Source: Candidatus Omnitrophota bacterium
Lineage (GTDB): Bacteria > Omnitrophota > Gorgyraeia > Zapsychrales > Fredricksoniimonadaceae
DNA length: 64,000 nt
Reading direction: 5' to 3'
Assembly: GCA_963828495.1 (NCBI GenBank)
Contig: CAWHFJ010000017.1
Span: 20,342 to 84,341 of the forward strand
Shown here: positions 1,089 to 23,823 of the stretch, piece after piece
Layout: the number at the start of each line of letters is the position of its first letter
How positions within the stretch are numbered: the stretch's first letter is position 1
Notes under the pieces: model-generated
Seen by the model: only the letters and a program-made list of their open reading frames with translations
Told to the model about the DNA's origin: nothing
The model's database searches: none
Program-made: the position numbers and the translations under genes

Positions 1089-1117
1089 TTGGAAAAAAAG
1101 TCTTATTTATGTATAAT
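1089..1117 (+). promoter_or_regulatory. Near-consensus sigma70 promoter; presumed native tRNA-Pro promoter now stranded at attL
   Basis: TTGGAA (1089-1094), 17-nt spacer, TATAAT (1112-1117). It sits 19 nt upstream of the truncated tRNA copy. Confidence 0.6.
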
Positions 1118-1135
1118 ACTTAATCTTTGACTTGG

Positions 1136-1176
1136 CGGGACGTAGCGCAGTTGGATTAGCGCACTTGAATGGGGTT
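1136..1176 (+). repeat. attL: 41-nt copy of the 5' half of tRNA-Pro(GGG)
   Basis: Identical to 12158-12198 (acceptor 5' strand through the anticodon loop). It diverges immediately afterwards, so it is not a functional tRNA. Confidence 0.9.
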
Positions 1177-1293
1177 GCTTCCAGGGCATTTTTACAACTT
1201 CTTTAAGCGCTGCAATTTATCGCATTCCTCGTCGACAAATAGCCATTTTTATTTTAACCTCTTAGAACGTCTTTTAACCTCTTTAGGCGCCAG

Positions 1294-1313
1294 ATGGACA
1301 CTTTTTGGACACT
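1294..1313 (+). promoter_or_regulatory. Putative integrase arm-type site (TGGACAC-TTTT-TGGACAC)
   Basis: ATGGACACTTTTTGGACACT is identical to 12066-12085. The heptamer doublet has 11-bp spacing. Confidence 0.5.
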
Positions 1314-1385
1314 AAAATTATGAAAAATATTTACACTACAAATTTCATTTTTGTATATAATGTAGTGTAAAAGGAGGGTTTTAAT

Positions 1386-1691
1386 ATGAGCGTTTTAAAA
1401 GGAATTCTTTCGGAAAGTCAGGAATATTATTTAAATATTAAGGATAAGATTAATCGTAAACTGTCTGATTTGCCTAAGGGAAGTATTAAGGAAAGAATTA
1501 TAGCGGGCAAGAAATATTATTATTTACAGCAGCGGATTTTAAACAAAATTGTTCACAAATATTTGGGTAAGCAAAAGCCGGAAGATTTAATTAAAAAATT
1601 ACAATTACGTAAATCCATGCGGAATGAATTAAAGAAAGTGGATGAAGCATTAAAATTGTTAAAGCGTAGCAGAGGGAGTGGCCGTGGATGA
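1386..1691 (+). CDS. Small basic coiled-coil protein, putative partner (antitoxin-like) of the downstream nucleotidyltransferase
   Basis: AAGGAGGG RBS. KGSIKERIIAGKKYYYLQQR motif. 14-nt overlap with the next gene. Confidence 0.45.
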   Translation: MSVLKGILSESQEYYLNIKDKINRKLSDLPKGSIKERIIAGKKYYYLQQRILNKIVHKYLGKQKPEDLIKKLQLRKSMRNELKKVDEALKLLKRSRGSGRG

Positions 1692-2370
1692 TATTATTTA
1701 TAAGATTCTTGAAGTGTTCAAAAAGAATAAACTGTTTGATGAAGGGGTTGAACTGATTGGAAGTTGGTCGTTTCTTCTTTACCAAAAACATTTGGATGCA
1801 CCTCAATTCCCTTTGAGGACACAAGACATTGATTTTCTTGTTCCTAATCCTTTTAAAGGTAAGGACCACCTTGGCCTTATTGATGAATTAATGGCTTTAG
1901 GCTTTCAAAAAGACTTTAGAAGAAATGGGTCGATATTTTTATATAATGCAGAATTGCTCATTGAATTTATAACTCCGGAAAAAGGGAGAGGAGTTGAGGA
2001 AGCAATTAATGTTAAGAAATTGGGACTAAGAGCAATACCATTAAGATTTGTGAGTTTATTGCTGGATGATCCAATAACCATTATAGACAACGGGATAGCA
2101 ATATTAGTGCCAAATCCTGTAAACTTTTGTCTTCATAAGCTTATAGTCTCGAGTCGACGTAGAAAATCTGAAAAGGCACTCAAAGATTTCCAACATGCGC
2201 TCTATACCTCAGCAATTGTGGAAAAAAAAGACCTATTAAAGCTGTTTGTAAGTTTACCGAAACCTTGGCAAAAATCTATTTTGAATGTTTTAGATAAATA
2301 CACCGATATTTTACCATTGGAAATTGACTATATAGAAGCCCTTAAGGTTACACTACAAATTATGAAATAA
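1678..2370 (+). CDS. Nucleotidyltransferase-fold protein (AbiEii/GSU2403-like)
   Basis: GTG start with a GGGAG RBS. GSWSF-x18-TQDIDFLV is the minimal NTase G[GS]...DxD signature. Confidence 0.55.
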   Translation: MAVDDIIYKILEVFKKNKLFDEGVELIGSWSFLLYQKHLDAPQFPLRTQDIDFLVPNPFKGKDHLGLIDELMALGFQKDFRRNGSIFLYNAELLIEFITPEKGRGVEEAINVKKLGLRAIPLRFVSLLLDDPITIIDNGIAILVPNPVNFCLHKLIVSSRRRKSEKALKDFQHALYTSAIVEKKDLLKLFVSLPKPWQKSILNVLDKYTDILPLEIDYIEALKVTLQIMK

Positions 2371-2542
2371 CAAAGTTTGTAGGGTAAAAGTCGGAGAGAA
2401 CCTGATTTGTAATGAGTTTTCGCCCTTTTTCCATTCCGTATGCCCTCCATGGAGTTGCGATAAAACCAGCTTTTACCGTCGGGGCACAAAAATTACCTCT
2501 TTAAACGTCTTTTAAGATTTTTTAACCACCTCGAATTTAAAA

Positions 2543-2560
2543 TGGACACAATTTGGACAC
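2543..2560 (+). promoter_or_regulatory. Third TGGACAC doublet (TGGACAC-AATT-TGGACAC)
   Basis: Same heptamer doublet and spacing as 1295-1312. It is preceded by the same ACCTCTTnnAACGTCTTTTAA box (2495-2515 versus 1257-1277). Confidence 0.4.
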
Positions 2561-2576
2561 CAAAAAGGGGGCCAAT

Positions 2577-2798
2577 ATGTTCACTACCAAACTAAGCGAC
2601 ATTCGTTTTGACCGAAAATCCAAGGCCATTTTATGGGTAGAAGCGGCGGTTTTTACGGTGATTTACGGGCTGATGTTTAAAACATGGTTGGTTACGGCTG
2701 GAATGGCCCTAGTGGCGACTTTCTTTATGAAGCAAGCCCCGGACACAGGCTTATATGGTGTATTGGATGAGTTTCTTATGGAGTCCTATATTCTTTAG
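2577..2798 (+). CDS. Small membrane protein (2 predicted TM helices)
   Basis: ATG 2577 with a GGGGG RBS. Hydrophobic stretches AILWVEAAVFTVIYGLMF and LVTAGMALVATFF. Confidence 0.4.
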   Translation: MFTTKLSDIRFDRKSKAILWVEAAVFTVIYGLMFKTWLVTAGMALVATFFMKQAPDTGLYGVLDEFLMESYIL

Positions 2799-2982
2799 CA
2801 TTGGTTTTGCTATTGCTGGATGGATTGGGGGCTTTGTTTTAGGTGGATGGGTGATCTTTAACGGAATTAAGCTTCATTGGAGGGACTTAAAACGCTCACA
2901 GGAAGATGAGAGCATAGAAACCTATGTCAATGCTGTGAATTGGAGGCAGAATTGGCATTTGGGGCCACAGAACATGAACTGA
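2755..2982 (+). CDS. Small membrane protein; overlaps the previous ORF by 44 nt (possibly one frameshifted gene)
   Basis: FFSIGFAIAGWIGGFVLGGWVIF is a TM segment. No recognisable family. Confidence 0.35.
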   Translation: MVYWMSFLWSPIFFSIGFAIAGWIGGFVLGGWVIFNGIKLHWRDLKRSQEDESIETYVNAVNWRQNWHLGPQNMN

Positions 2983-3093
2983 AGTAGTCTCTCGTTATAA
3001 TCAAACCAAATATTAAATCCTGTTTGTCAAAGCCTGTAATATTACAAGCATCCTTATTTTATTATCCCCAAAAATTATAATTTCCATAAATAA

Positions 3094-3120
3094 GGGAATA
3101 ACTTGTTAAAAGTTATTCCC
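3094..3120. promoter_or_regulatory. Perfect 11-bp inverted repeat (GGGAATAACTT-n5-AAGTTATTCCC), candidate operator
   Basis: Palindrome located 60 bp upstream of the -35 of the DeoR-family gene promoter. Confidence 0.4.
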
Positions 3121-3179
3121 CAAAAGTTAAAAATTGGCGCTCTCTTAATAGACTGATAAAGTTTACTCTCTAATTTTAC

Positions 3180-3207
3180 TTGACAGATTTTTACCCTCTG
3201 GTAATAT
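3180..3207 (+). promoter_or_regulatory. Sigma70-type promoter of the DeoR-family gene
   Basis: TTGACA (3180-3185), 16-nt spacer, TAATAT (3202-3207). Confidence 0.6.
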
Positions 3208-3234
3208 AGTCCCTTTAAGAGGGGTTGGAAGAAT

Positions 3235-4134
3235 ATGAAAACTAAAGACGAAATCTACGAGCGATACAAAAAAATATTGGAGGCTTTTACCCAAAAATCT
3301 GAATTGTCAAATCAGGATATTCAGGGAAGATTGGGGAATGTCACCGACAAGGTTCTTTGGCAAGATATTATGGCGCTGGAAAAAATGGGCCTAATACAGA
3401 GGTTCCGTGGTGGGGCAAGGTCAAATATATTTGCTGGAAAAAATACTGAATTTTATCGCCGTTTAGCTGAAAATCGGGAGGGCAAAGAAGTCATTGCTAG
3501 TAAGGCAATTGAAATATTTCTTAATAAAAATAAGACTGATTCAAAAATTTGTATTTTTTTGGATAGCGGATCAACAAACCTCATTTTATTTAAGGGAATC
3601 ATTAATGACCCATCTTTAAAAAATGTCGTCTTTAAAATTGTTAGCCATAACGTTACCTTCGCCCATGAATGTTGTCCAGAGAACATTTTACTGATCCTCT
3701 CCGGTGGTATATATTCAAGCCAAGATGAGTGTATGGTCGATAGAGCCGTGGAGATTTTTCCTAGTTATCCCGCAAGATTTGCTTTTCTATCGGCAAGTAA
3801 TTTGAGTTATACGGGAGGTCTCTTGGGCTACAATGCTGGTGAAAGTAAGGTTAAAAAAGCGATGATTCAAAATGCGGAGGAATTGGTCATATTAGCCGAC
3901 CACTCTAAATTCAGGTTTACAGGTGGAGAGTTAATTGCTAAATTTCAATGGTTTACCGACGGTGCCAAGGTTCTTAAGCTTGTTTCCAAGGAGGGGAATT
4001 TCTCTAAGCCAGTAAAAATAGTTACGGATGCTCATGAAAATAAAGCTGATATTTTAAAAGGATTTATTGATCTAGAAAAAGGTATAACGGAGGGAATCGT
4101 GGAAGAGTTTATTCTTTTTGCTCAGAAAAAATGA
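3235..4134 (+). CDS. DeoR/GlpR-family transcriptional regulator (wHTH plus DeoRC sugar-phosphate sensor domain)
   Basis: N-terminal SNQDIQGRLGNVTDKVLWQDIMALEKMGLIQRFRGGA HTH. C-terminal IFLDSGSTNL and LVILADHSKF motifs typical of DeoRC. Confidence 0.7.
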   Translation: MKTKDEIYERYKKILEAFTQKSELSNQDIQGRLGNVTDKVLWQDIMALEKMGLIQRFRGGARSNIFAGKNTEFYRRLAENREGKEVIASKAIEIFLNKNKTDSKICIFLDSGSTNLILFKGIINDPSLKNVVFKIVSHNVTFAHECCPENILLILSGGIYSSQDECMVDRAVEIFPSYPARFAFLSASNLSYTGGLLGYNAGESKVKKAMIQNAEELVILADHSKFRFTGGELIAKFQWFTDGAKVLKLVSKEGNFSKPVKIVTDAHENKADILKGFIDLEKGITEGIVEEFILFAQKK

Positions 4135-4379
4135 CTTTATATAAAGATGCGGTGTACATGGCTCGCGACCACATACACCGCTAAACGACAATCAGACCGG
4201 GTAGGCCTTATGCCGTTTTTTTTGCTGTTGGAAGTATAGCATTATAGGGTTCTGTCTTCAAGTCTGAAGAACAAAAAGGCTAATGCGCAGAAAGATGGAT
4301 CTTTTTTTGCGTTATAAATCTAAATTAGAACGGTAAAGGCAGGATTAATTTCTCAATTTAGCTTCATAAGGATTAATAA

Positions 4380-5516
4380 ATGATAAAAGAGGTAACCCGA
4401 TATATTAAAAAAGAAGTTGAACGTGAATTATGGGCTCGAGCGGCGGGTCGCTGTCAATTCGACGGTTGCAATAGGATTCTTTATAGATCTCCGGTAACTA
4501 AGGAACGAGTTAACATCGCAGAAAAAGCACATATTTATTCTTTTTCTGAACATGGCCCACGAGGATGGGGACCCTTTATTACAAATACAAACGCTTTGAA
4601 CAATATTTCAAACTTAATGTTAATGTGCCATGATTGCCATGAAAAAATTGATCAAGATGAGAAAGGGATCAGATATTCTGCCGGACTCTTACTAGAGTGG
4701 AAACTTAAACATGAACGACGTATAGAAATTGTTACATGTTTTGCTCCGGATAAAGAATCACATTTGGTTATATATGGTGCTAACATTGGAGAAGAAAAAT
4801 CTCCACTACAGGAAATGGCAGCGGTAGATGCAATGTTCTCTGATTGGTATCCGGCAGAAGAGAAGGCAATAAGCCTTTCAATGCATTGGGAACAAGAAGA
4901 TAGAAATGCAGAATATTGGGCAATGGAAAGGGACAATTTAAAAACGATTTTTGAGCGAAATATAATTCCTAAAATAAGGGAGAATAATCCGGCACATTTT
5001 TCTCTTTTCGCTTTTGCCCCTCAACCATTGCTTATTTATTTAGGGCATTTATTTACTGATAAAATACCTGTTAATGTCTATCAATTACATCGTGAGCCAA
5101 TTACATGGAAATGGCAGCCTCACCCTGAAGGTTTCGAGTATATTGTTAATCGGCCATCAGACACGAAGAATCAATCGGTTTTAATTATTTCTCTTAGTGG
5201 CAAAATTACCCGTGACCGTATTACTTCAATTATGGGAGATAATATCAGTATTTGGGAGCTCACTATAGAGAAACCCAATAACGATTTTTTGCAATCTCAA
5301 GCACAGTTATCAATGTTTCGAGTGGTTCTGCGTCGTCTTATGGTTGAGATAAAAGAAAAACATGGTCAACAGACAGTATTGCATATATTTCCTGCAATGC
5401 CTATTGCATGTGCTGTGGAATTTGGAAGAATTCGGATGCCTAAAGCAGATATGCCTTGGGTAATTTATGACCAGAACAATAAGGAAAAAACATTTATTAA
5501 AGCATTACAAATATAG
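4380..5516 (+). CDS. cap5: CBASS effector Cap5 (HNH endonuclease fused to a SAVED sensor domain)
   Basis: CQFDGC...KAHIYSF...NLMLMCHDCHEKID forms the HNH core with zinc knuckles. The C-terminal ~250 aa are SAVED-like (LFAFAPQPLLIYLGHLF...YQLHREP.TWKW). Confidence 0.75.
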   Translation: MIKEVTRYIKKEVERELWARAAGRCQFDGCNRILYRSPVTKERVNIAEKAHIYSFSEHGPRGWGPFITNTNALNNISNLMLMCHDCHEKIDQDEKGIRYSAGLLLEWKLKHERRIEIVTCFAPDKESHLVIYGANIGEEKSPLQEMAAVDAMFSDWYPAEEKAISLSMHWEQEDRNAEYWAMERDNLKTIFERNIIPKIRENNPAHFSLFAFAPQPLLIYLGHLFTDKIPVNVYQLHREPITWKWQPHPEGFEYIVNRPSDTKNQSVLIISLSGKITRDRITSIMGDNISIWELTIEKPNNDFLQSQAQLSMFRVVLRRLMVEIKEKHGQQTVLHIFPAMPIACAVEFGRIRMPKADMPWVIYDQNNKEKTFIKALQI

Positions 5517-5526
5517 GAGGACGGAA

Positions 5527-6729
5527 ATGAATGATCAACAGAAATCTTTACTTATAGAATCCATAGTCCAGTCTTTGGAATTGCCGGATTCTGCGTATGA
5601 AAAAGCAAAATCACGATATGAGGATATTGGTGAATGGTTTGGTCGTGATGAATCACAGTTTAAAGGTAATAAGCCTCATATTTTTCCTCAAGGATCATTT
5701 CGTTTAGGGACAGCCATTTATCCCATAGACAAAAGTGAACCGTATGATCTTGATTTAGCATGTGAGCTACAAGTAGGCATTACAAAAAGGCTGTACACAC
5801 AGCAGCTATTCAAATCGAAAATGGGTAAAGAAATTGAAGATTATCGTGTAGCAAAAGGCATTAAGGCTCCAAAAGAAGAAAAACATCGATGCTGGCGTCT
5901 TAATTATGCCGATGCGGTGAGTTTTCATATAGATGTAGTTCCTTGTATCCCCGCTGATGCATCTAGAATGAATTCAATTCTTGAATCAATGAGAAAATTT
6001 GGTGAAAATGAATTTGTGGCGGCGTCCGTATCAAAATTGACCGTTTCAATCACGGACGACCAACACCCACAATATCCCCAAATATGTGATCAATGGTATG
6101 TTAGTAACCCGGAGGGTTATGCAAAATGGTTTGAATTTCGGATGAAGCAAGCACAAAGATTTCTTAATGAAAAGGTGGCGCTTTTTAAAGCAGCAGACAT
6201 CGATAAATTACCGACTTTCATGTGGAAGACGCCATTGCAACGTTGCATACAGATATTAAAGAGGCATCGGGACATAATGTTTAGGGATCAATCTGAGTTA
6301 AAGCCAATTTCGGTTATTATCACCACGCTTGCTGCTAAAGCATATAGCGGCGAAACGGACTTAAATCAAGCGATGCGGACAATACTGGCGAAAATGGGGG
6401 AATTTGTAAATAGTGATTTTCCAAAAGTCCCAAACCCAGTGAATCCTGGTGGCGAAGATTTTGCAGAGAAATGGGCAACAGATCGTCGTCTGGAGGAAAA
6501 TTTTTGGGCTTGGCTTCAACAAGCGGAAAATGATTTTAAAGAAATTGGAGATACAATGGATACGGGTCTTATTACGGGACAAATTTCTAAAAAATATTCG
6601 GTCAATCTGAATGAATCAGGCTTGCGGAAGCGACTGGGACTGGCTGACCAGCCGACTGATGCGGCTTTAAAATATTCAGGGCCAATAGTTGTTACCTCTA
6701 AACCATCGGGAAGGCATTACAGTCTTTAG
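5527..6729 (+). CDS. CD-NTase (cGAS/DncV-like nucleotidyltransferase, SMODS)
   Basis: AGGAGG RBS overlaps the cap5 stop. GSFRLGT-x12-YDLDL plus SFHIDVVP gives the G[S]...DxD...D catalytic triad. Confidence 0.8.
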   Translation: MNDQQKSLLIESIVQSLELPDSAYEKAKSRYEDIGEWFGRDESQFKGNKPHIFPQGSFRLGTAIYPIDKSEPYDLDLACELQVGITKRLYTQQLFKSKMGKEIEDYRVAKGIKAPKEEKHRCWRLNYADAVSFHIDVVPCIPADASRMNSILESMRKFGENEFVAASVSKLTVSITDDQHPQYPQICDQWYVSNPEGYAKWFEFRMKQAQRFLNEKVALFKAADIDKLPTFMWKTPLQRCIQILKRHRDIMFRDQSELKPISVIITTLAAKAYSGETDLNQAMRTILAKMGEFVNSDFPKVPNPVNPGGEDFAEKWATDRRLEENFWAWLQQAENDFKEIGDTMDTGLITGQISKKYSVNLNESGLRKRLGLADQPTDAALKYSGPIVVTSKPSGRHYSL

Positions 6730-6732
6730 ACT

Positions 6733-7464
6733 ATGAAAACGTTGTCTCCTGATGAGAAGAAGTGGCTTAATATTCGATTTCCAGAACTAAAAATTAATGA
6801 AAGTGAGAATGGATACACGCTTGCGGGTAACCTCATCGTAGATATGTTTTTTGATGAGACTTCGGACGATAGATATGTTATTTTTCCTGACGTAAGCGTG
6901 CATTCTTCCGAATACTACATTAGCGATGTCTATCAGGTTTTGGTTGATTACAAGAATGGTTATTTTGTTCCAGCAGTGCAGGAAACGTCTGGACGTATAA
7001 AGGCATTTGCCCTGCGGAGAAACATTAAATCACCTGATTTACATATTAATGACGATGGTAAGCTCTGCTTATGCCCAAAACCATTAGAAAAGGTAAGGCT
7101 TAATGATACATATACTATCCAAGATTTTTTTACGATTTTATTGATCCCATTTCTTTATGCGCAGAGTTACTTCGAAAAATTTAATCGCTGGCCATGGAAG
7201 GACTACAGTCATTATGATCTTGGAATTTTAGAATGTTACGCTAATTGTCTCTCACAGGCTCGAGATAAGAAACAGTTTGTAGAAGAAACAGTGGACTCCT
7301 TGAGTCCAAAGAATCAAACCGTTATTCGTTCAGCAGATAGAATAACTAGACAGTCGGTTTGTTTCTGTAATTCTGGAAGCAAGTTTCGGCAGTGTCATCC
7401 TGAGGCTTGGAAAGTTGCGAAAAGGCTGAAGGAGGAAATCCAAGCTCTATATACTAAGGCTTAA
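6733..7464 (+). CDS. E2-only Cap2-like protein with a C-terminal SEC-C-type metal motif
   Basis: DLHINDDGKLCLCP resembles the UBC/E2 HxN...G.hCh active site. CFCNSGSKFRQCH is SEC-C-like. The gene starts 3 nt after the CD-NTase stop. Confidence 0.55.
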   Translation: MKTLSPDEKKWLNIRFPELKINESENGYTLAGNLIVDMFFDETSDDRYVIFPDVSVHSSEYYISDVYQVLVDYKNGYFVPAVQETSGRIKAFALRRNIKSPDLHINDDGKLCLCPKPLEKVRLNDTYTIQDFFTILLIPFLYAQSYFEKFNRWPWKDYSHYDLGILECYANCLSQARDKKQFVEETVDSLSPKNQTVIRSADRITRQSVCFCNSGSKFRQCHPEAWKVAKRLKEEIQALYTKA

Positions 7465-7547
7465 AAAATATATTAGAAAAATAATTCAAAATTTGGTGGC
7501 GCTTTTTTATTTGTAAACATAAGTCAGCTTTAGGTAGGATTGAGTCA

Positions 7548-7575
7548 TTGTTTTAATAAATATGCAACGTAATAT
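7548..7575 (+). promoter_or_regulatory. Putative promoter of the DUF6119 operon
   Basis: TTGTTT, 16-nt spacer, TAATAT. The -10 ends 8 nt before ATG 7584 and there is no Shine-Dalgarno sequence, so the transcript may be leaderless. Confidence 0.35.
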
Positions 7576-7583
7576 AAAAGATT

Positions 7584-9230
7584 ATGAGTAAAAGCCGTCC
7601 ATTTTCAATTTATCTTCTTAAGCCTGAGTTTAATGCAGGTAATGCTCTTAAGGATAATCATGGTCTTGACGTTTGTCATGAGGCTAGCGGTTTACCCGAG
7701 GGATCAATTTTATATGTCTTGGATAATTCACCCCATCCTCCATGGTGGAAATCCTATTTTCAAATTTCAAAAGATTTAACTCAGGTTACAAAAGGAGCTT
7801 TACTCTTTCTTTTAGTCAATGGCCGAACCTTTGCTCTTTCATTTGGTTATGTTCACCATCATCTGAAGGATATTTGTTATGAATATGATTTTGGATTAAG
7901 AGTAACGCTTAATAGTATAATTCCTAAATTTAAAAGCGCTGATACGCTAGATCCCGGTTCATCAAGAAGGCAAAGGACACAATTTCCGATTGAATCAGAT
8001 TTGACTTATTTCGATTTTGATAAAGATAGTACCATCATTAAAAGACTTACCGGAAAGGTTAAAGATGAATATAAGGAATTATTTAACTATGCTACAGGCT
8101 CGAGTAGTCTAAAGATAAACATTAATGTGCCACCTGCAAGACTCACAAGTATTTGCGAACGGCTTCTTTCTATTTATCAAAGTGAAGATTACAAGATTAA
8201 TTTTCCAGATATTCAAAATATTGAGCCCGTTAAAGACCCGACCATTATCGCGAGATTGAATGAAAAGTTGTTAGAGGCATTTAAAGGTAAAGATATCAAT
8301 CTTACTCTCGCTGTTCCTGACATCATAAATTATCATAGCAACGTTTACGCATGTTTTTCAGGTTCAGGAGGAGGAGATTTATCAAATGATGTTTCTATGG
8401 AGCATTATTATGCATATTTACAAAAGAATGAGATTAGTTTAAATGATATGGGAATAAATAATATAGAAAGTCACGACCTTGATTTGACTGATGACAATGC
8501 CCAAACACAAGAGAGCTTTAATGTTTTTAAGTGTATGATTTTTGATACGACATTAGATAATAATGATAATGTTTATCATTTATGCGATGGTAATTGGTAT
8601 AAGGTAGATAATAACTATATCAGAAAAATGAAGATTTTTCTTGATCCCTATTATGAAGATGTGCCCTTTCTTGCCTATAATCATGGCAATGAGGGGTGTT
8701 ACAATAAAGCTATTGCTACAACTGATAAGACGTATATTTGTCTTGATCAGAAAAATATTGGCCCGGAAGGTCAAAATCAGGTTGAGCCTTGCGATTTATA
8801 TAAATGTGTAAATAATCAAGCTTATTTTTATCACGTTAAGATTTCAACTAGATCGTCACAATTAAGTCATCTTTTTAATCAGGGAGTCAATGCTATTGAG
8901 TTAATTAAGTCAGAAGAAGAATCACGATGTAAACTGAAAGAATTGATCAAAAATGATTTGAATACAAATACTGAAAGTATTTATCTATCTCCTATAGATC
9001 AGCAGAAATATAAGGTCGTATTTGTTATTGTTACTCACAAAAATAAATCAAAGAAATCAGACAATTTTCCTCTTTTTTCGCGTATTAGCTTAATGCGAAG
9101 TCTTAAAGCTTTTAGAATAATGAGTGTTGATGCTGCTTATTGCTTTGCAGAAGATACAACCGTAAGGATTGCTGGAATGAAAAAGTCACGAAAATCTAAG
9201 AAAAGTCAATATGAAGAAAAAGTAGTATAA
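7584..9230 (+). CDS. TIGR04141/DUF6119-like sporadically distributed protein with a putative PD-(D/E)xK nuclease motif
   Basis: FSIYLLK N-terminus, FGLRVTLN, DGNWYKV, and C-terminal LD-x13-EPCDLY-x11-YHVK...LSHLFNQG. The layout matches my recollection of that family. Confidence 0.6.
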   Translation: MSKSRPFSIYLLKPEFNAGNALKDNHGLDVCHEASGLPEGSILYVLDNSPHPPWWKSYFQISKDLTQVTKGALLFLLVNGRTFALSFGYVHHHLKDICYEYDFGLRVTLNSIIPKFKSADTLDPGSSRRQRTQFPIESDLTYFDFDKDSTIIKRLTGKVKDEYKELFNYATGSSSLKININVPPARLTSICERLLSIYQSEDYKINFPDIQNIEPVKDPTIIARLNEKLLEAFKGKDINLTLAVPDIINYHSNVYACFSGSGGGDLSNDVSMEHYYAYLQKNEISLNDMGINNIESHDLDLTDDNAQTQESFNVFKCMIFDTTLDNNDNVYHLCDGNWYKVDNNYIRKMKIFLDPYYEDVPFLAYNHGNEGCYNKAIATTDKTYICLDQKNIGPEGQNQVEPCDLYKCVNNQAYFYHVKISTRSSQLSHLFNQGVNAIELIKSEEESRCKLKELIKNDLNTNTESIYLSPIDQQKYKVVFVIVTHKNKSKKSDNFPLFSRISLMRSLKAFRIMSVDAAYCFAEDTTVRIAGMKKSRKSKKSQYEEKVV

Positions 9231-9246
9231 AGTTGAAGAGGAGAAT

Positions 9247-9735
9247 ATGAAAAAACTAAATTGTTATTTGTCTCAGGCCATAACGTTACTACGACAATTT
9301 GATCAAACGGAAGTCGATGAATATCTTAAATTTTATGAGCATATTGAAAAATGTGTAAAGAAGAATCACAAAGTAAATATTTTTCATCCAATAAAAGAAG
9401 ACTCGATGATAAGTGCAAATGAGATATACTTGCGAGATTTGGCTGAGGTGGATAAGGCCGATTTTTTAGTTGCAGAGATTTCGGTTGTCTCTTGGGGTGT
9501 TGGACAAGAGTTAACTTATGCGATCATGAAAGGCAAGCCTATATTGGCTTTATATAACAATAAGTCTAGGTTCAAACTATCCGAAATGATATCGGGTTCG
9601 GGTTTAAGAATTCGTACATATAACGGAAAAGGCCTTGAATGGAAAGAGCAAATTGCAAGACACATTGCGGGGTTTATGCCGGAAGTAAAGCAATATTTTT
9701 ACCTTAGGGGGCGAGTATGCGCAAAGCCATTGTGA
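9247..9735 (+). CDS. DNPH1/Rcl-like protein (nucleoside 2-deoxyribosyltransferase superfamily N-glycosidase fold)
   Basis: ADFLVAEISVVSWGVGQELTYAIMKGKPILALYN...LSEMISGS parallels DNPH1 ADVVVAEVTQPSLGVGYELGRA...LSAMIRGA. GAGGAG RBS. Confidence 0.6.
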   Translation: MKKLNCYLSQAITLLRQFDQTEVDEYLKFYEHIEKCVKKNHKVNIFHPIKEDSMISANEIYLRDLAEVDKADFLVAEISVVSWGVGQELTYAIMKGKPILALYNNKSRFKLSEMISGSGLRIRTYNGKGLEWKEQIARHIAGFMPEVKQYFYLRGRVCAKPL

Positions 9736-10448
9736 AACAGAGACTATTAATAAGTATCCGGGGTCCCAAAGAAGCCATAGAAGCTTCTAAAGGTGGGGCT
9801 CATATCATTGATGTTGAATATCCTGCATCTGCATTGGGGACTCCATACCCTCTTAATATACAAACTGTTCGTAAGGCAATGCCTAAAAGGATACAGGTTG
9901 CAACAAATATAGGAGAAGAGCAATTAGTTCGTAGCTCTGCTTGCCAAGCAGCTTTAGGCGTGGCTCTTTCTGGCGCTGATATTATCAAAGCTGGATTAGC
10001 AAAATATTCATTTAAAGAAGCAAAATACGTAGGAGAAAATATCGTTAGAACTGTAAAGCATTGGTTCCCTGAAAAAAAAATTATTCCCGCTGTTTTTGCC
10101 GATAAAAATTTAAGGAAAATTTTTGATCCTTTAAAAGAAGGTCATAGGTTAGGGCATGCGATAAAGGCTGATGGTATTTTGATTGATACTTTCGATAAAT
10201 CTAAATCCAAGAATAGATTAATGGATCTGTTAACATATAAACAGATCGAAGAATTTGTTATAAATTGCCATTCATTGGAACTCGAAGCTTGGATAGCTGG
10301 GTCAATTAACAAAGAAGAGATCTTTGAACTCTGGAATACAGGAGTGGATGTTATTTGTATTCGTGGAGCGGCTTGTGAACAGACAGGAAAAGGGCGTTTC
10401 GGGGAAGTAAAGGCAAAAATTGTTACTGACCTTATTAGAATGAAATAA
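9717..10448 (+). CDS. MfnB-like / 4-HFC-P synthase family (ex-DUF556) TIM-barrel aldolase-fold protein
   Basis: GGAHIIDVEYP, SGADIIKAGL, LIDTFDKSK and WIAGSI...DVICIRGAAC are colinear with MfnB motifs. It overlaps the upstream gene by 19 nt. Confidence 0.7.
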   Translation: MRKAIVKQRLLISIRGPKEAIEASKGGAHIIDVEYPASALGTPYPLNIQTVRKAMPKRIQVATNIGEEQLVRSSACQAALGVALSGADIIKAGLAKYSFKEAKYVGENIVRTVKHWFPEKKIIPAVFADKNLRKIFDPLKEGHRLGHAIKADGILIDTFDKSKSKNRLMDLLTYKQIEEFVINCHSLELEAWIAGSINKEEIFELWNTGVDVICIRGAACEQTGKGRFGEVKAKIVTDLIRMK

Positions 10449-10463
10449 GGAACAGGCACAAAC

Positions 10464-10510
10464 CAGGCACAAACGAGGCACAGTTCTGTGCCCCGTTTTG
10501 TGCCTCTTCT
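10464..10510 (+). terminator. Two-helix hairpin terminator after the MfnB-like gene
   Basis: AGGCACAAA (10464-10472) pairs with TTTGTGCCT (10496-10504), and an inner CACA pairs with TGTG. A T-rich tail follows. AGGCACA occurs three times in tandem. Confidence 0.6.
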
Positions 10511-10516
10511 TTTGTC

Positions 10517-10620
10517 GTAACTCTCCTATTCGCAACGGTTTTTTGGGCGAGAAGCGCCCAAAATCGTTCAAGACCCCTCTCTCCCAACCATAAGTTAGTA
10601 GGGGAGACAGGGGTCTTGAA
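10517..10620 (+). repeat. Dispersed repeat copy 2 plus a 19-bp-stem hairpin
   Basis: 10517-10569 is homologous to 981-1034. It contains TTTTGGGCG-agaag-CGCCCAAAA. 10567-10585 pairs with 10602-10620 with one mismatch. Confidence 0.6.
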
Positions 10621-10629
10621 CTAAACCGT

Positions 10630-10870
10630 TGCTAATGGGAGGGTATAATTTAGGTGTGGTTAATGAGTATTTAGAAGTGTTCCAGTGTGAGGGGTAAAGA
10701 GGATAAGAGTAAGAGGGAGATTTAGGGATGGTTATAGGTTATATTGAATGATTGTTTTGGATTGTTGTCTGGGGGTGTTATTTAGGATTTTTTGAATTTG
10801 TTTGAGGGTTCTGGTTATTTTACTGATTTTGGTCTTATGTTGCGGTGGATAGGTTGATAATGTTTTTCTG
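10630..10870 (+). other. ~240-nt C-depleted (G/T/A-only) non-coding tract
   Basis: Only about ten C residues on the + strand by eye. No ORF of 60 aa or more on either strand. A TATAAT lies at 10644-10649. Confidence 0.5.
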
Positions 10871-11033
10871 CTTTGATCCGGCCATGCTGGAGCACTTGCA
10901 AAATGCTCCAGGCGTTGTGCCGGGACAAAATTTAAATTAACATTATAGGATTATGTGGTAGTATATTGATAATTCTGCTGATTCCCCGATCGGCATAATA
11001 GTCTAAATTCCCCCAGCAGTTAATCTTTTATGG

Positions 11034-11057
11034 ATTCCCGTTTTCGCGGGAATGACA
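11034..11057 (-). repeat. Small hairpin repeat (ATTCCCG-n6-CGGGAAT-GACA), inverted copy of the element at 52894-52918
   Basis: CGCGGGAATGACA is the reverse complement of TGTCATTCCCGCG at 52894-52906. Confidence 0.5.
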
Positions 11058-11078
11058 ATAGGTTGGGAGGATAAGCTT

Positions 11079-12167
11079 ATGGGCGTTTATCGAAAAGACA
11101 ACGTATTTTTTATTGACTATTATGTCAACGGCCGCCGCAGGAGAGAAAAAATCGGTACCAGCCGTAAGCTTGCTGAAACCGTCCTTGCCAAGCGAAAAGT
11201 CGATATTGCCGAGGGGAAATTCCTGGATATTCGCACCAGCAAAAAAATCAAGTTTGAGATCTTTGCCGATGAGTTTTTGAATCTTCATTCCAAGGTCAAT
11301 AAAAAAAGCTGGAAATCCGATCTCTACAATCTGCACAGTTTGGGTAAATATTTCGACGGTAAATATCTTTATGAAATTTCAGTCAAAGACATTGAAGGTT
11401 ATAAATCCGACCGCATAAAGTCCGCAGCGCCTGCCACCGTTAACCGCGAATTAGCCACCTTAAAAACAATGCTTAATAAAGCTGTTCTGTGGGGCAAGCT
11501 TAAAGAAAGCCCTGCCAGGCCGGTGAGTTTTTTAAGAGAGCCGAATGGCCGTATGCGTTTTTTGGAGCGTGAGGAGATTGTTAAAGTGCTTAGCCATTGC
11601 GATAAAAAGTTGCGGCCTATTTTGGTGCTTGCTTTGAATACCGGCATGCGCAGGGGAGAGATTTTTGGGCTGAAATGGCATGATATTGATGTCAAAAGGA
11701 ACATCATCACGCTTCTGGATACCAAGAATGGTGAAAAGCGGGAAGTATACATGAATGAACAGGTTAAGACTGCATTGATTCGTGTGCCCAGGAACCCCAA
11801 AAGCGCTTATATCTTTTGCGGACCTGACGGCAAACCTTATCGGGATATTCGCAAAAGCTTCTGGACAGCCCTGCGTAAATCTGGTATAAAAGATTTTCAC
11901 TTCCATGACCTCAGGCACACCTTTGCAAGCCAATTGGTCATGTCAGGTATTGATTTAAATACTGTAAGGGAATTGTTGGGGCATAAGGATTTGAGAATGA
12001 CATTACGCTATAGCCATCTGTCAGCCAGCCATAAGCAAAAGGCCGTGGATATTTTGGGTAAAAACATGGACACTTTTTGGACACTTGAGGGAAATCAGAA
12101 GAATCAGCAAAAATTAGATTTTTCACAACCTATTGAAAATAAAGAACTAATTAGGTCCGGGACGTAG
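11079..12167 (+). CDS. int: Tyrosine recombinase / phage-type integrase
   Basis: GGAGG RBS. ALNTGMRRGEI (Arg), FHFHDLRHTFAS (His-x-x-Arg), LLGHKDLRMTLRYSHL (His, catalytic Tyr). The stop codon lies inside the tRNA/att core. Confidence 0.9.
   Translation: MGVYRKDNVFFIDYYVNGRRRREKIGTSRKLAETVLAKRKVDIAEGKFLDIRTSKKIKFEIFADEFLNLHSKVNKKSWKSDLYNLHSLGKYFDGKYLYEISVKDIEGYKSDRIKSAAPATVNRELATLKTMLNKAVLWGKLKESPARPVSFLREPNGRMRFLEREEIVKVLSHCDKKLRPILVLALNTGMRRGEIFGLKWHDIDVKRNIITLLDTKNGEKREVYMNEQVKTALIRVPRNPKSAYIFCGPDGKPYRDIRKSFWTALRKSGIKDFHFHDLRHTFASQLVMSGIDLNTVRELLGHKDLRMTLRYSHLSASHKQKAVDILGKNMDTFWTLEGNQKNQQKLDFSQPIENKELIRSGT
12066..12085 (+). promoter_or_regulatory. Putative integrase arm-type site inside the int 3' end
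   Basis: ATGGACACTTTTTGGACACT is identical to 1294-1313. It lies 72 nt upstream of the attR core. Confidence 0.5.
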
Positions 12168-12235
12168 CGCAGTTGGATTAGCGCACTTGAATGGGGTTCA
12201 AGAGGCCGTGGGTTCAAGCCCCACCGTCCCGACCA
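12158..12235 (+). tRNA. tRNA-Pro (anticodon GGG), CCA encoded
   Basis: Manual cloverleaf: acceptor CGGGACG/CGTCCCG, D stem GCGC/GCGC, anticodon stem CTTGA/TCAAG with loop AUGGGGU (U33, GGG, G37), T arm GTGGG-TTCAAGC-CCCAC, then ACCA. Confidence 0.9.
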
Positions 12236-12259
12236 TTTTTCAAAAGGATGACAAAGATT

Positions 12260-12582
12260 ATGGATAAACCTTTTAAAGAACGCCGTAAACATCCGCGTAT
12301 TTACCGTAATTTTATTCTTTCTTATCATGAAAAGGGTAAATCAGCTCTGAAACATGAAGTCTCCCAGATCAATAATATCAGTCAAGGGGGCATGAATTTT
12401 GTATCGACACATCCTTTAAAGAGGGGACAATAGTGGTGCTTGATTTAAAAACTCCATTTATTGTGGATTCCATCCATCTGGAGGGGGTTGTTTTGGAAAG
12501 CAGGGAAAAAATCCCTGAAATGATTTATGAAATCCGGGTGCAATTTAACGATATTCCCGAGCAAGTGTTAGCATGTGCTTGA
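12260..12582 (+). pseudogene. PilZ-domain protein, reading frame interrupted near 12431 (assembly indel or pseudogene)
   Basis: RRKHPRIY and QINNISQGG are the PilZ RxxxR and D/NxSxxG motifs. The rest of the domain (VVLDLKTPF...YEIRVQFNDIPE) continues in another frame. Confidence 0.6.
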
Positions 12583-12628
12583 AAAAATAGAGAGTTATGG
12601 AAGAGCAGAGGAGAAACTTAAAGATCTT

Positions 12629-13922
12629 ATGGACTGCATTAATATAGGTTTGATCGGTTATGGGGTGGTGGGGCAGGGGGTGGTAAAATCCTTAAAAATC
12701 GCCGTAAATTTTTTAGGGATAAGTATAAAAAAGATTTTTTTATTAAGACCATTGCTGACCGCAGCATTCAGAAAAAAGCCTCTCCGGGCCTTGAAAATAC
12801 TTTATTGACAACGGACATCAATGCCGTTTTAAACGACCCGGACATTCATGTGGTCGTGGAATTAATCGGCGGCATGACCCCGGCCAAAGATATCATGCTG
12901 CAAGCGGTGCGTTGCGGTAAACATGTGGTCACGGCCAATAAAGAGCTTTTGGCCACTTGCGGCCAGGAATTGTTCCGGGAAGCCAATGCCAATAACCGCA
13001 TGATTTATTTTGAAGCGGCCGTCGGTGCAGGGATCCCCATCATCCGTACCATCACCGAAGGGGTGGCGGGCAATAAATTCAACGGTATTTACGGGATCAT
13101 CAACGGCACCTGTAATTTTATTTTAACCGAGATGTCCAACCGCAAGCTGACTTTTCAGGAAGCTTTAAAAGAAGCCCAGGAAAAAGGTTACGCGGAAAGA
13201 AACCCGACCCTGGATATCAGCGGGATGGACACCGCCCATAAATTGGCCGTGCTGGTTTTTTTGACCCAGGGAAAATTTGTCAGCGTTAATGATTTCCATG
13301 TGGAGGGCATCAACCATATTTCCCATGATGACATTGAATTCGCCTCGGCCCTTAATCTGGAGATCCGTTTATTGGCCATTGCCAAAAAAATCGGCAACGA
13401 GCTGGATGTGCGCGTCCACCCGACGTTGATTCCCAAAGACCATGGGTTAGCCACGGTCAATGGGGTGGACAATGCCATTTTCTTTGATTTGGACCCGATG
13501 GGAGACGTATTTATCGAAGGCCAGGGCGCGGGCCAGATGACGGCGGCTTCCGGGATCGTCAGTGATTTGATCAATTTAGGTATTCGCAAGGACGTACAAA
13601 TGCCGCGTGGATTTTTAACCCCACGGAAGAGCAGCAAAACGTTGTCTTAAGAAAAATCGACGCGGTGGAAACCAGGTTTTATTTTCGTTTTATGGTCATT
13701 GATAAACCCGGGGTATTGTCCATTATTACCGGTGTTTTGGGCCAGCATAATATCTCCATTGCGTCGGTCAATCAAAAGCAGGAAAACAAAGGTTCCACGG
13801 TGCCGGTGGTCATGTTGACGCACGTGGCCAACGAGCGTTCCGTGCGTGAAGCGCTGGAGCAAATCACCAATCTCGCGGTCATCCGCAGTAAACCCGTGGC
13901 CATACGCATGGAGAAACTCTAA
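12629..13922 (+). pseudogene. hom: Homoserine dehydrogenase, split over three frames (shifts near 12695 and 13590-13620)
   Basis: INIGLIGYGVVGQGVV NAD-binding fold, central catalytic region, and C-terminal ACT domain (RFYFRFMVIDKPGVLS). The first shift is in an A5 run. Confidence 0.8.
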
Positions 13923-14977
13923 TGCGTTGGACTGGGATCATTGATCATTATCGGGAATATTTGCCGGTTTCTGATAAGACGCCGGTGGTAACCTTATATG
14001 AAGGCCATACACCGCTTATTCCGGCGGAGTTTTTAAACAAGATCACCGGCCTGCAAACTTTCTTAAAATACGAAGGGTTAAATCCAACGGGTTCTTTTAA
14101 AGACCGCGGCATGACTATGGCGATTTCCAAGGCCCTGGAAAAGAAAGCCGAAGTGGTCATGTGCGCGTCCACCGGTAATACATCAGCGTCTGCGGCGGCT
14201 TATGCTGCCCGTGCGGGGATGAAATGTGTCGTGCTTATTCCCAATGGCAATATTGCCATGGGCAAGCTGTCCCAAGCCATGATCCATCAAGCGCAGGTTA
14301 TTGCCATTGAAGGCAATTTTGATGATGCGCTCAATTTAGTCAAAGATATTACTGCCCATTACCCGGTAGAATTAGTGAATTCTTTAAACCCGTTTCGTAT
14401 TGAAGGCCAGAAAACAGCGGCCTTTGAAATTTGTGATTTTTTAGGTGACGCCCCGGAATTTCATGCTATTCCCGTTGGTAATGCCGGCAATATCACCGCG
14501 TATTGGAAGGGTTATCAGGAATACCGTACGGCAGGCAAGTCAAAGACACGGCCTCACATGTTGGGTTTTCAGGCCGCGGGTGCGGCCCCGATTGTGCACA
14601 ACCGTATTATTGAAAAGCCTGAAACGATCGCCACGGCCATCCGTATCGGTAATCCGGCCAGTTGGAAATCTGCCGTTGAGGCCCGTGACCAATCCCATGG
14701 CTTGATTGATATGGTCACAGACGAAGAGATATTACAGGCTTATCATCAGTTGGCTGCTTTTGCAGGGGTCTTTGTGGAACCCGCTTCCGCAGCGGCGGTG
14801 GCAGGGATTATCAAGTTAGCGAAGGCCGGATATTTTAAAGGTCATTCCAAAGAACGTCTGGTGTGCACCATGACCGGGCATGGTCTTAAAGACCCTAAAA
14901 CGGCCATGCAGGATTTGCCTGAACCTAAAGTCATTAAGGCAGATAAAAAAGATGTCCTGAAGCTGATTGGTTTATGA
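13922..14977 (+). CDS. thrC: Threonine synthase
   Basis: NPTGSFKDRGMT PLP-lysine motif. Full-length 351 aa. Confidence 0.9.
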   Translation: MRWTGIIDHYREYLPVSDKTPVVTLYEGHTPLIPAEFLNKITGLQTFLKYEGLNPTGSFKDRGMTMAISKALEKKAEVVMCASTGNTSASAAAYAARAGMKCVVLIPNGNIAMGKLSQAMIHQAQVIAIEGNFDDALNLVKDITAHYPVELVNSLNPFRIEGQKTAAFEICDFLGDAPEFHAIPVGNAGNITAYWKGYQEYRTAGKSKTRPHMLGFQAAGAAPIVHNRIIEKPETIATAIRIGNPASWKSAVEARDQSHGLIDMVTDEEILQAYHQLAAFAGVFVEPASAAAVAGIIKLAKAGYFKGHSKERLVCTMTGHGLKDPKTAMQDLPEPKVIKADKKDVLKLIGL

Positions 14978-15588
14978 AAGTCAAAGTACTTATCACATGC
15001 GGGGCGACCTGGACTCCCATTGATGATGTGCGGGTGATCAGTAATATTTCCACCGGGGAAATGGGGCATTCTATAGCCCAGGCTTTCAAGCGGGCAGGTG
15101 CCAACGTCACGGTGATTGAAGGGCCGGTGACACATACCCTTTTGGCTCAGGGTATTAAGATTATCAAATACCGTTTTTTTGACCAATTAGCTAAACTTCT
15201 TAAGATAGAGCTGCGCAAAAAATACGTTATTATCATTCACGCGGCGGCTGTTTCCGATTTTAAGCTTCTGGGGGTCCGCAAAGGCAAAATAACATCCGGT
15301 CGTCCGTTGACATTGCGTTTAAAGGCGACCCCGAAGCTGATTGAGACTATTAAAGTTTTAAGTCCTGAAAGTTTTTTAGTAGGGTTTAAATTAGAGACCA
15401 GGCTAAGCCCTAAGAATATTTTTAAAATAGCCCGGCCTTTGTTTAATCAATCAGGCTGTGATGTGGTGGTGGCGAATACTTTAACAGGCGGCTATCGGGG
15501 TTATATTGTGAATGCGGATGGGGAAATTTTAGCTAAAGCCGCCGATAAAGAAAAACTTGCAAAAGCATTGGTAAAATTGGTGTCATGA
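14974..15588 (+). CDS. coaB: Phosphopantothenate-cysteine ligase (CoaB domain)
   Basis: VLITCGATWTPIDDVRVISNISTGEMG and AAAVSDF motifs of the DFP/CoaB family. Confidence 0.8.
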   Translation: MKVKVLITCGATWTPIDDVRVISNISTGEMGHSIAQAFKRAGANVTVIEGPVTHTLLAQGIKIIKYRFFDQLAKLLKIELRKKYVIIIHAAAVSDFKLLGVRKGKITSGRPLTLRLKATPKLIETIKVLSPESFLVGFKLETRLSPKNIFKIARPLFNQSGCDVVVANTLTGGYRGYIVNADGEILAKAADKEKLAKALVKLVS

Positions 15589-16796
15589 TGAAATACATTA
15601 TTCTTGTTCCGGATGGGTTGGCTGATGAGCCTTTAAAAGAATTAGGCGGGAAGACTCCTATGGAGGCGGCCAATACGCCTCATATGGATTATTTGGCAGA
15701 GCATGGTTTGTCTGCTTTGGTACAGACCATTCCTGATTCTCTACCGCCGGGCTCGGACATCGGTAATTTAGCTTTACTGGGTTATGACCCTAGAGAAAAT
15801 TTTTCAGGCCGGGCACCTTTGGAAGCGGCTAGTTTAGGGGTCAGGCTTGACGATGATGAGGTGGCGTTTCGCTGCAACCTGGTGACTGTTAAAGGCGGCA
15901 CTATGGTGGATTACAGCGCCGGGCATATATCATCGGATGAGGGCCAAAATCTTATTGAATATCTTCAGCGTGCGATTGATTGGCCGGATGTGCGTTTTTA
16001 TCCCGGCAAAAGTTATCGTCATTTGATGGTGCTGAAAACCATCAATATCGCCAACACCCTTCAGATCAAAACAACGCCGCCTCATGATATCATGGGACAA
16101 TCGATGAAAGCGTATTTACCTGTGGGGCCTCAAAGTGATCTTTTGTTAAAGCTCATTGGAAAATCTGAAAAACTTTTAGGGTCGCACCCGATCAATAAAT
16201 TACGCGAAACCGAAGGGCATAATCCGGCCAATATGATTTGGCTGTGGGGTCAGGGAGGCCATCCTAATCTGCCTTTATTTAAAGATCGTTATCATCTCAA
16301 AGGATCGATCATTTCGGCGGTGGATTTGGTCAATGGGATAGGCCGTTTGGCCGGTTTAGATATCATTGACGTTCCCGGCGCCAACGGCTATTACGACACC
16401 AATTATAAAGGTAAGGCCCAGTACGCGTTGAATTCTTTAAAAAAGCACGACTTTGTTTATGTCCATGTGGAAGCCACCGATGAGGCCGGTCACAATGGGG
16501 ATTGGAAAGCCAAAACAGCATGCTGTGAACGTTTCGACAAAGAAGTCGTCGGCACTGTCTTGGAATTTTTTAAAAACCCTCAAGGTGTCAGGATATTAGT
16601 TTGCCCTGATCATCCCACCCCGGTGTCTTTGCGTACGCATACGCGCACGCCGGTACCTTTTGTGATGTGGGGGGAAGGCATTCCCAGAGGTGAGGTTAAA
16701 AAATATTCAGAAAAAACGGCGTCCACGGCCGGTTGTAAATTTACAAGCGGTGAAGAGATGGTTAAATATTTTTTAAAGAAAGAGAGCACGAAATAG
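15585..16796 (+). CDS. Cofactor-independent phosphoglycerate mutase family (ApgM-like); in a threonine-operon context this is the proposed alternative homoserine kinase
   Basis: ILVPDGLADEP...KTPMEAANTPHMD and VHVEATDEAGH metalloenzyme motifs. Located between thrC/coaB and lysC. Confidence 0.75.
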   Translation: MMKYIILVPDGLADEPLKELGGKTPMEAANTPHMDYLAEHGLSALVQTIPDSLPPGSDIGNLALLGYDPRENFSGRAPLEAASLGVRLDDDEVAFRCNLVTVKGGTMVDYSAGHISSDEGQNLIEYLQRAIDWPDVRFYPGKSYRHLMVLKTINIANTLQIKTTPPHDIMGQSMKAYLPVGPQSDLLLKLIGKSEKLLGSHPINKLRETEGHNPANMIWLWGQGGHPNLPLFKDRYHLKGSIISAVDLVNGIGRLAGLDIIDVPGANGYYDTNYKGKAQYALNSLKKHDFVYVHVEATDEAGHNGDWKAKTACCERFDKEVVGTVLEFFKNPQGVRILVCPDHPTPVSLRTHTRTPVPFVMWGEGIPRGEVKKYSEKTASTAGCKFTSGEEMVKYFLKKESTK

Positions 16797-19585: not shown

Positions 19586-19642
19586 GGGACAGCGCCCTAT
19601 TTTTGCTTGTGTGGAAAATAGGGAGCAGCGCCCTATTTTTTT
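19580..19642 (+). terminator. Tandem pair of near-identical rho-independent terminators
   Basis: AAATAGGG-gacagcg-CCCTATTT (19580-19602) and AAAATAGGG-agcagcg-CCCTATTTT followed by a T-run (19615-19642). Confidence 0.7.
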
Positions 19643-19646
19643 AATT

Positions 19647-23802: not shown

Positions 23803-23823
23803 TTTTTGTTGAGGCGGGTCATC

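Follow-up and report, generated by a model that had tools for sequence, protein, structure and literature searches.

The 64-kb stretch of DNA analyzed here (hereafter, the window) is from a Candidatus Omnitrophota bacterium, and the nearest relatives of its integrase are annotated as Candidatus Omnitrophota as well. We found that positions 1177–12198 very probably represent an 11-kb integrative defence island that is inserted in the gene for tRNA-Pro(GGG), carries its own tyrosine integrase and has a reversed polarity, in which the element provides the tRNA gene's 5' half. In textbook cases, it is the gene's 3' end that a tRNA-targeting element replaces, and the host promoter therefore keeps driving the tRNA; replacement of the 5' end has been treated as a curiosity. 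We lean toward the view that a candidate sigma-70-like promoter, supplied by the element within codons of the integrase gene (int), frees expression of the rebuilt tRNA from the regulation of int.

Insertion of the island at the tRNA-Pro(GGG) gene

With ARAGORN and Rfam, we detected a single tRNA in the window, tRNA-Pro(GGG), on the plus strand (12158–12235, 62.3 bits). A repeat search of the window recovered the exact 41-nt direct repeat described in the initial annotation (1136–1176 and 12158–12198, spacing 11,022 nt). As had also been claimed, this repeat equals nt 1–41 of the tRNA, comprising the 5' strand of the acceptor stem, the D arm, the 5' strand of the anticodon stem with its 7-nt loop (ATGGGGT), and a single base beyond, and the block of tRNA identity therefore reaches nt 41, one base past the anticodon loop. 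By our own arithmetic, the chance expectation for a repeated 41-mer in 64 kb is ~1e-15. The intact tRNA gene lies at one end of the island and a co-oriented fragment (1136–1176), which by itself obtains no tRNA call, lies at the other. The G+C content is 35–39% in the island, compared with 46–49% in the right flank.

We scanned metagenome contigs with a 30-mer spanning the anticodon, and four contigs matched. Contigs L083 and L084 represent the empty site, in which the promoter directly abuts the intact tRNA gene (18 nt upstream of it) without any insertion. Their upstream part is 97% identical to positions 1076–1176 of the window, with both promoter hexamers unchanged; their tRNA is identical to that of the window at 78 of 78 nt; and their flank is ~91% identical to, and syntenic with, positions 12158–24280. 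Both flanks of the island are joined precisely, to the base, in these contigs. It follows from the empty site that the TTGGAA-17-TATAAT sequence at 1089–1117 on the plus strand (–35 element at 1089–1094, –10 element at 1112–1117, 10/12 matches) is the native tRNA-Pro(GGG) promoter, which the insertion has left stranded at the distal (attL) junction, directed into the island; this sequence, which the initial annotation had singled out as a near-consensus promoter before the truncated copy, was also the top-scoring site of the region in a promoter scan. It likewise follows that positions 1136–1176 (plus strand), which are contiguous with this promoter as in the empty site, are the displaced host 5' fragment (nt 1–41) and form the attL core, and that the 5' half of the working gene (12158–12198, plus strand), which forms the attR core, arrived with the element. 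In an independent assembly, L174, the break in identity at the attR side falls at the tRNA. The earlier proposal that the element supplies the 5' half is borne out by this arrangement, since it is the tRNA's 5' part that makes up the att block, and the native promoter accompanies the displaced fragment on the upstream side. On sequence comparison, the 11,022-bp insertion, its 5'-half polarity and the stranding of the native promoter are thus all real.

These comparisons show that attP carries tRNA nt 1–41 fused to the 3' end of int, and the island's own tyrosine integrase would have targeted the anticodon-loop region of tRNA-Pro(GGG). Integration left the host's promoter, together with its 5' half of the gene, at the far left junction and rebuilt an identical tRNA gene (12158–12235, plus strand) beside int, in which the 5' half comes from the element and the 3' half from the host.

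The integrase gene (11079–12167, plus strand) encodes 362 amino acids (PF00589, 3e-35; phrog_1) in an open reading frame (ORF) that is open from 11052/11079, with a GGAGGA ribosome-binding site upstream of the 11079 start. The R-K-H-R-H-Y catalytic set is represented by residues R191, K216, H276, R279, H302 and Y311, none of which varies across the family alignment. The last 10 nt of int, including the stop codon, overlap tRNA nt 1–10, and the TAG codon (12165–12167) coincides with tRNA nt 8–10; the ORF coordinates thus agree with the earlier statement that the stop falls within the repeated core.

The initial annotation had also mentioned matching arm sites, and we indeed found TGGACAC-N4-TGGACAC three times in the window (at 1295, 2543 and 12067), compared with an expectation of 0.26. 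The putative P' arm-type pair (1295–1312, plus strand) is located 119 nt inside the left end, and the putative P arm-type pair (12067–12084, plus strand) is located within the int ORF, 91 nt upstream of tRNA position +1, where it encodes the conserved MDTFWT motif of the integrase. The same pair occurs in the same two places in the independent islands L003, L004 and L091, and L058 and L108 exhibit a matching layout with different motifs. Such a conserved paired layout is what would be expected of arm-type integrase binding sites, and the pairs flank the core on both sides, with one of them inside int.

The P' arm segment (ACCTCTT..AACGTCTTTTAA .. ATGGACACnnnTTGGACAC; 1257–1313) is duplicated at 2495–2561, 1.24 kb further into the island, over ~60 bp, and the duplicate contains the second arm-like pair, TGGACACAATTTGGACAC (2543–2560, plus strand). 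The two segments bracket a two-gene module (1386–2370, plus strand) that encodes a 101-amino acid ORF and a PF12281 nucleotidyltransferase identified with Pfam, and the module is also flanked by inverted repeats (1330–1370 and 2348–2388). This arrangement may have been left over from a tandem array, or the module may have been captured.

No terminator was found on scanning from the stranded promoter to the co-oriented cargo, and the fold after the displaced fragment has z = 0.58. With no terminator and with the cargo in the same orientation, transcription from the stranded promoter into the island is plausible, and this host promoter would then transcribe the co-oriented cargo. We also considered the orientation of the cargo as an adaptation to 5' polarity, and rejected the idea because all-plus cargo was also found in three of five 3'-type islands. 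To the left of the promoter, positions 1–1075 (38% G+C) encode a HicA-like toxin (650–880) and small ORFs. In the empty-site contig L084, nothing corresponding to this left flank precedes the promoter; the region upstream of the tRNA gene is itself variable. Two segments of 47–49 nt, one just upstream of the native promoter (981–1027) and the other inside the island (10517–10563), are ~77–86% identical to each other.

Polarity and site occupancy among related elements

The integrase has roughly 6,000 homologues. We surveyed polarity at 80 genome loci that encode relatives of it, and at 60 of them a tRNA gene lay no more than 400 bp from the int 3' end. The tRNA was on the int strand (5' type) at 24 of these 60 loci and on the opposite strand (classical 3' type) at the remaining 36. 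The repeats of 5'-type elements covered tRNA nt 1–43 (with one mismatch) in L003, nt 1 to ~38 in L004, nt 1–40 in L058 and nt 1–39 in L091, and those of the 3'-type elements L023, L038, L045, L060 and L064 extended from nt 29–35 to the 3' end of the tRNA. In a rough neighbour-joining tree, the window integrase fell in a coherent 5'-type clade, and smaller 5'-type clusters were scattered among 3' types; this pattern suggests repeated switches of polarity within the integrase family. Eight additional close homologues were all of the 5' type, with the tRNA starting –10 to +13 nt from the int stop. As judged from these loci, 5' polarity is the rule in the widespread clade of the window integrase, and the same insertion geometry was found in at least 12 other genomes. 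The viral contig L108 represents a free attP: int is followed by nt 1 to ~43 only of tRNA(CAT), with arm-like repeats on both sides.

Several of these loci exhibit features of their own. In L003, the rebuilt tRNA-Arg(TCG) (11087–11163) has G at nt 30, which produces a G–A mismatch in the anticodon stem, and the displaced host fragment (1075–1117) has the pairing T at this position. The element-supplied half may thus slightly damage the tRNA, and the mismatch implies that crossover occurred 3' of this base. In L010 and L018, a 5'-type integrase lies upstream of a tRNA gene (1141–1212 and 11086–11162, respectively), and a 3'-half repeat of the same tRNA is located 3–5 kb downstream of it (4132–4174 and 15942–15988, respectively); in these cases, two elements appear to exploit a single tRNA gene, one from each side. 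L005 encodes a 47%-identical 5'-type integrase (10001–11139) beside tRNA-Leu in a contig that is labelled as a Methanosarcinaceae archaeon metagenome-assembled genome (MAG), which reflects either cross-domain spread or mis-binning. In L068, a 16-nt stretch (1075–1090) copies the 5' end of tRNA-Lys; it is located 66 nt upstream of the real tRNA and falls within the tail of an int that is truncated. L091 contains a 9.6-kb 5'-type island (1494–11192) in tRNA-Leu(CAA), the second gene of a tRNA cluster, and its cargo is satellite-like, with a primase (Toprim/DUF5906) and a terminase small subunit.

The arrangement of int, tRNA-Pro(GGG), PilZ, hom and thrC was also found in the Omnitrophota MAGs L085, L087, L088, L092 and L093, in which the cargo differs and the geometry is the same. 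The L085 element is an integrative and conjugative element, because it contains type IV secretion system genes, and its flank is ~72% identical to the window. One chromosomal site is therefore observed in four states: empty (L083/L084), occupied by the defence island (the window and L174), occupied by an integrative and conjugative element (L085), and occupied by a decayed relic (L082).

The right 1.4 kb of the island is 99.9% identical in L174, in which the tRNA is identical at 78 of 78 nt, the flank is 90.5% identical and the break in identity between island and flank falls at the tRNA. A 99.9% identical island end beside a 90.5% identical flank points to a recently transferred element, unless one of the assemblies was mis-joined at the tRNA, and we infer that the island is, or recently was, mobile. 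It would be so without the Xis-like gene of its family: an HTH_17 Xis-like gene is present beside or near int in eight of eight relatives, but a tblastn search found no HTH_17 Xis homologue in the window, and there is no plausible small ORF upstream of int. This and two further points weigh against mobility, namely that the attP junction of the island was not found in viral contigs and that a strain mis-join at the 78-nt tRNA is possible in principle, which would weaken the argument from L174 but not the evidence for the insertion. The evidence on the earlier suggestion that the element is still excisable is thus mixed, with the missing Xis-like gene on one side and the signs of recent mobility on the other.

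A candidate promoter within the integrase gene

Neither in the window nor in its closest relatives did we find a promoter within the 90 nt upstream of the tRNA, and a consensus promoter scan of the plus strand from 11123 to 12300 listed no site. We noted a weak TTCACA-18-ACTAAT sequence near the tRNA by eye, but it lacks the conserved A2 and was not relied on. The initial annotation had concluded that the rebuilt tRNA has no good promoter and must depend on read-through from int. The first part of this conclusion stands for the DNA next to the tRNA, whereas the second is challenged by a conserved promoter-like element inside int. In an alignment of the window, L085 and the L082 relic, we found TGGACA-17-TGgTATAAA 267 nt upstream of tRNA position +1 (11862–11890, plus strand; –35 element TGGACA at 11862–11867, TG at 11882–11883, –10 element TATAAA at 11885–11890). 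The tRNA is thus probably not promoterless.

We scored this motif over the 12 hexamer positions, with 1 point added for the upstream TG (maximum 13), in 15 close 5'-type sequences (the window, L001–L004, L008, L068, L085 and L087–L093). The motif was present in the same register in 15 of 15 sequences, always with a spacer of 17 and with a score of 10–11, and its –10 element was 266–270 nt from the tRNA in all of them; a score of at least 9 anywhere in the segment was reached by only 2 of 33 3'-type relatives. The Ile codon in the –10 element was ATA in 14 of 14 sequences, compared with 29% elsewhere in the same genes, and the preceding codon ended in T in 13 of 14. Similarly, Thr at the motif was encoded by ACA in 11 of 12 sequences, compared with 32% elsewhere. 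The residues over the –35 element vary (FWT, FFT, FLS, FLT, FLK, FLQ and FST), and the hexamer nevertheless remains TTGACA-like. In the L082 relic, only int amino acids 246–280 and 347–362 persist, frameshifted, and the reading frame and 190 nt have been lost, yet the embedded motif and the tRNA-proximal tail are retained; no copy of the native promoter was found within 859 bp in L082.

One alternative is that the rebuilt tRNA gene lacks a promoter of its own and depends entirely on read-through, either from the promoter of int (candidate TTAACA-16-TAGTAT, 10937–10964) or from the cargo, the motif in int being a by-product of coding. This account is consistent with the lack of a consensus promoter close to the tRNA and with the shared orientation of int, all cargo and the tRNA, and, in archaeal elements of the pTN3 type, the integrase promoter is reported to drive the rebuilt tRNA (PMC8371274). 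We nevertheless consider it unlikely, because synonymous codons are fixed at the motif, as the ATA counts illustrate, because the hexamers stay while the amino acids change, because 3'-type relatives, which keep the native promoter, lack the motif, and because the L082 relic keeps it despite a dead int. Alternatively, the embedded promoter could be real but serve the element: once the element is excised as a circle, transcription from this promoter would cross attP and reach the genes at the left end (from 1386), a task that the stranded host promoter would take over in the integrated state. In attP, the motif indeed precedes both the core and the left-end ORFs, which are co-oriented with it, and no terminator was found after the core. 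However, the L082 relic has no element genes left to drive, and the motif is confined to the 5' type even though 3'-type relatives share the int-proximal attP layout; this explanation, which is compatible with a role in tRNA expression, appears slightly less likely still.

A quite different possibility, that the repeat or one junction is a chimeric join at the tRNA sequence, derives some credit from window-specific 1-nt indels that break PilZ and hom in the right flank and suggest that the assembly is not error-free. We regard such an artefact as highly improbable, given that the attR junction is reproduced in the independent L174 assembly, that the geometry recurs in other genomes, that the attL junction bears the arm site expected of attP and that the empty site agrees with both flanks to the base. 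We return to an element-supplied promoter within int, from which, as a sigma-70-type promoter at 11862–11890, the rebuilt tRNA would be transcribed before maturation by RNase P, with read-through from int or the cargo as a secondary source of the transcript.

Several points count against this proposal. The embedded promoter is deduced from sequence. The –10 element of the window is TATAAA, with A at the last position, and the consensus scan omits it. The 15 sequences are phylogenetically related, and the codon counts are therefore not independent trials. Moreover, distant 5'-type relatives lack the embedded motif: some have a promoter in the spacer between int and the tRNA, and some have neither. 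In L053, L058, L057, L024, L031 and L016, a good –35/–10 pair is located 7–16 nt before the tRNA.

A broader generalization, for and against which we see about equal grounds, is that a large clade of bacterial integrases, which is common both in Omnitrophota and in further uncultured phyla, integrates in every case with the 5'-half polarity and makes up for the lost host promoter by encoding a sigma-70 promoter in codons of the catalytic domain, and that this promoter stays as the permanent promoter of the tRNA when the element decays, as in L082. If this is true, mobile elements durably rewire tRNA gene expression. The island bears on how mobile genetic elements alter tRNA expression, and a promoter overlapping the integrase reading frame is a concrete answer to the question of how the rebuilt tRNA is expressed. 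A compact natural stretch of ~300 nt would combine coding sequence, a candidate promoter, a putative recombinase arm site and a tRNA leader.

Cargo and relation to known systems

The island contains ten ORFs, all on the plus strand. Downstream of the two-gene module described above are a DeoR/GlpR-like regulator (3235–4134, plus strand) and a type II (E2-only) cyclic oligonucleotide-based antiphage signaling system (CBASS) operon (4380–7464, plus strand), identified with Pfam and PADLOC. This operon comprises, all on the plus strand, an HNH-SAVED effector (Cap5-like; 4380–5516, PADLOC 2.6e-149), a CD-NTase (5467–6729, PADLOC cyclase 3.6e-118) and an E2-like protein (6733–7464, PADLOC 1.5e-32); CD-NTase, E2-like Cap2 and SAVED-fused effector, the set that defines type II CBASS, are thus found in one operon. 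They are followed on the same strand by a TIGR04141/DUF6119 protein (7584–9230, Pfam), a nucleoside 2-deoxyribosyltransferase-like protein (9247–9735) and a 4-HFC-P-synthase-like protein (9717–10448).

A non-coding gap of 630 bp (10449–11078) separates these genes from int and occupies the place of the HTH_17 Xis-like gene in relatives. It contains a long imperfect hairpin (10520–10644) and a stretch of ~200 nt (~10640–10850) with almost no C on the plus strand, where the GC skew reaches 0.94 (10650–10850). Rfam gave no match in this gap, the tRNA being its only match. Just downstream of the tRNA, the PilZ-domain gene and the homoserine dehydrogenase gene (12261–13922) are broken by 1-nt indels at ~12423, 12570, 12684 and 13604. 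These indels are specific to the window, being absent from L174 and L083, and both genes are intact in L083; they represent either real pseudogenes or assembly errors.

The initial annotation had stated that such elements normally carry the 3' part of the tRNA, and the literature agrees in that the reversed case is documented as rare, though not unprecedented (PMC6563490, PMC8371274, PMC5495485). Recombination with the 5'-distal part of tRNA genes has been described as 'considerably less frequent', with reference to Zhao and Williams 2002 and to Thermococcales elements (PMC6563490), and the filters of Islander allow a 5' fragment upstream of the tRNA gene (PMC4383910). The window island belongs to this documented rare class of integration, and island-finding software must handle both polarities. 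As summarized in PMC6563490, the bacterial element of Zhao and Williams 2002 (J Bacteriol 184:859) has the same polarity as the window island. In the present case, the polarity is a property of a whole clade, and int overlaps tRNA positions +1 to +10.

An archaeal parallel is provided by Thermococcales integrases of the pTN3/TKV4 type (Cossu et al. 2017, PMC5495485; PMC8371274). The att site of pTN3 is 41 bp long and lies in the 5' half of tRNA-Leu, and the rebuilt tRNA, cut off from its original promoter, is expressed from the integrase side; this 5'-half arrangement is seldom seen in bacteria (PMC8371274, PMC5495485). The window island shares the 41-bp att site, the use of the tRNA 5' half, the separation of the rebuilt tRNA from its first promoter and, putatively, expression from the element side. 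However, the pTN3/TKV4 enzymes are 'suicidal' integrases, in which attP is inside the int ORF and integration splits int. In the window island, unlike elements of the pTN3 or SSV type, int (11079–12167) is intact in the integrated and the free state, only its last 10 nt overlapping the core, and the enzyme, which is bacterial and lambda-like, has putative arm-type sites.

Classical anticodon-loop integrators (symmetric sublocation, Williams 2002, as cited in PMC8371274) resemble the window island in having a tyrosine integrase, a block ending at the anticodon loop and int beside attP. Their block covers ~nt 30–76, and the window island, with nt 1–41, is the mirror image; in consequence, the promoter side of the gene is the side that is replaced. 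The 3'-type members of the same protein family (the five listed above) follow the classical pattern, with repeats from nt ~30 to the tRNA 3' end. The dusA-specific islands (Farrugia et al. 2015, PMC4482086) are also bacterial, element sequence takes the place of the 5' end of the gene that they target, and putative –35/–10 elements are present upstream before and after integration (PMC4482086). They differ in that the target is a protein-coding gene and the integrase belongs to a different family, and no promoter embedded in the integrase ORF is reported in that paper. Relative to the cited literature, the present analysis adds a polarity that extends across a clade, evidence for a promoter in an integrase ORF, and a single chromosomal site in four states.

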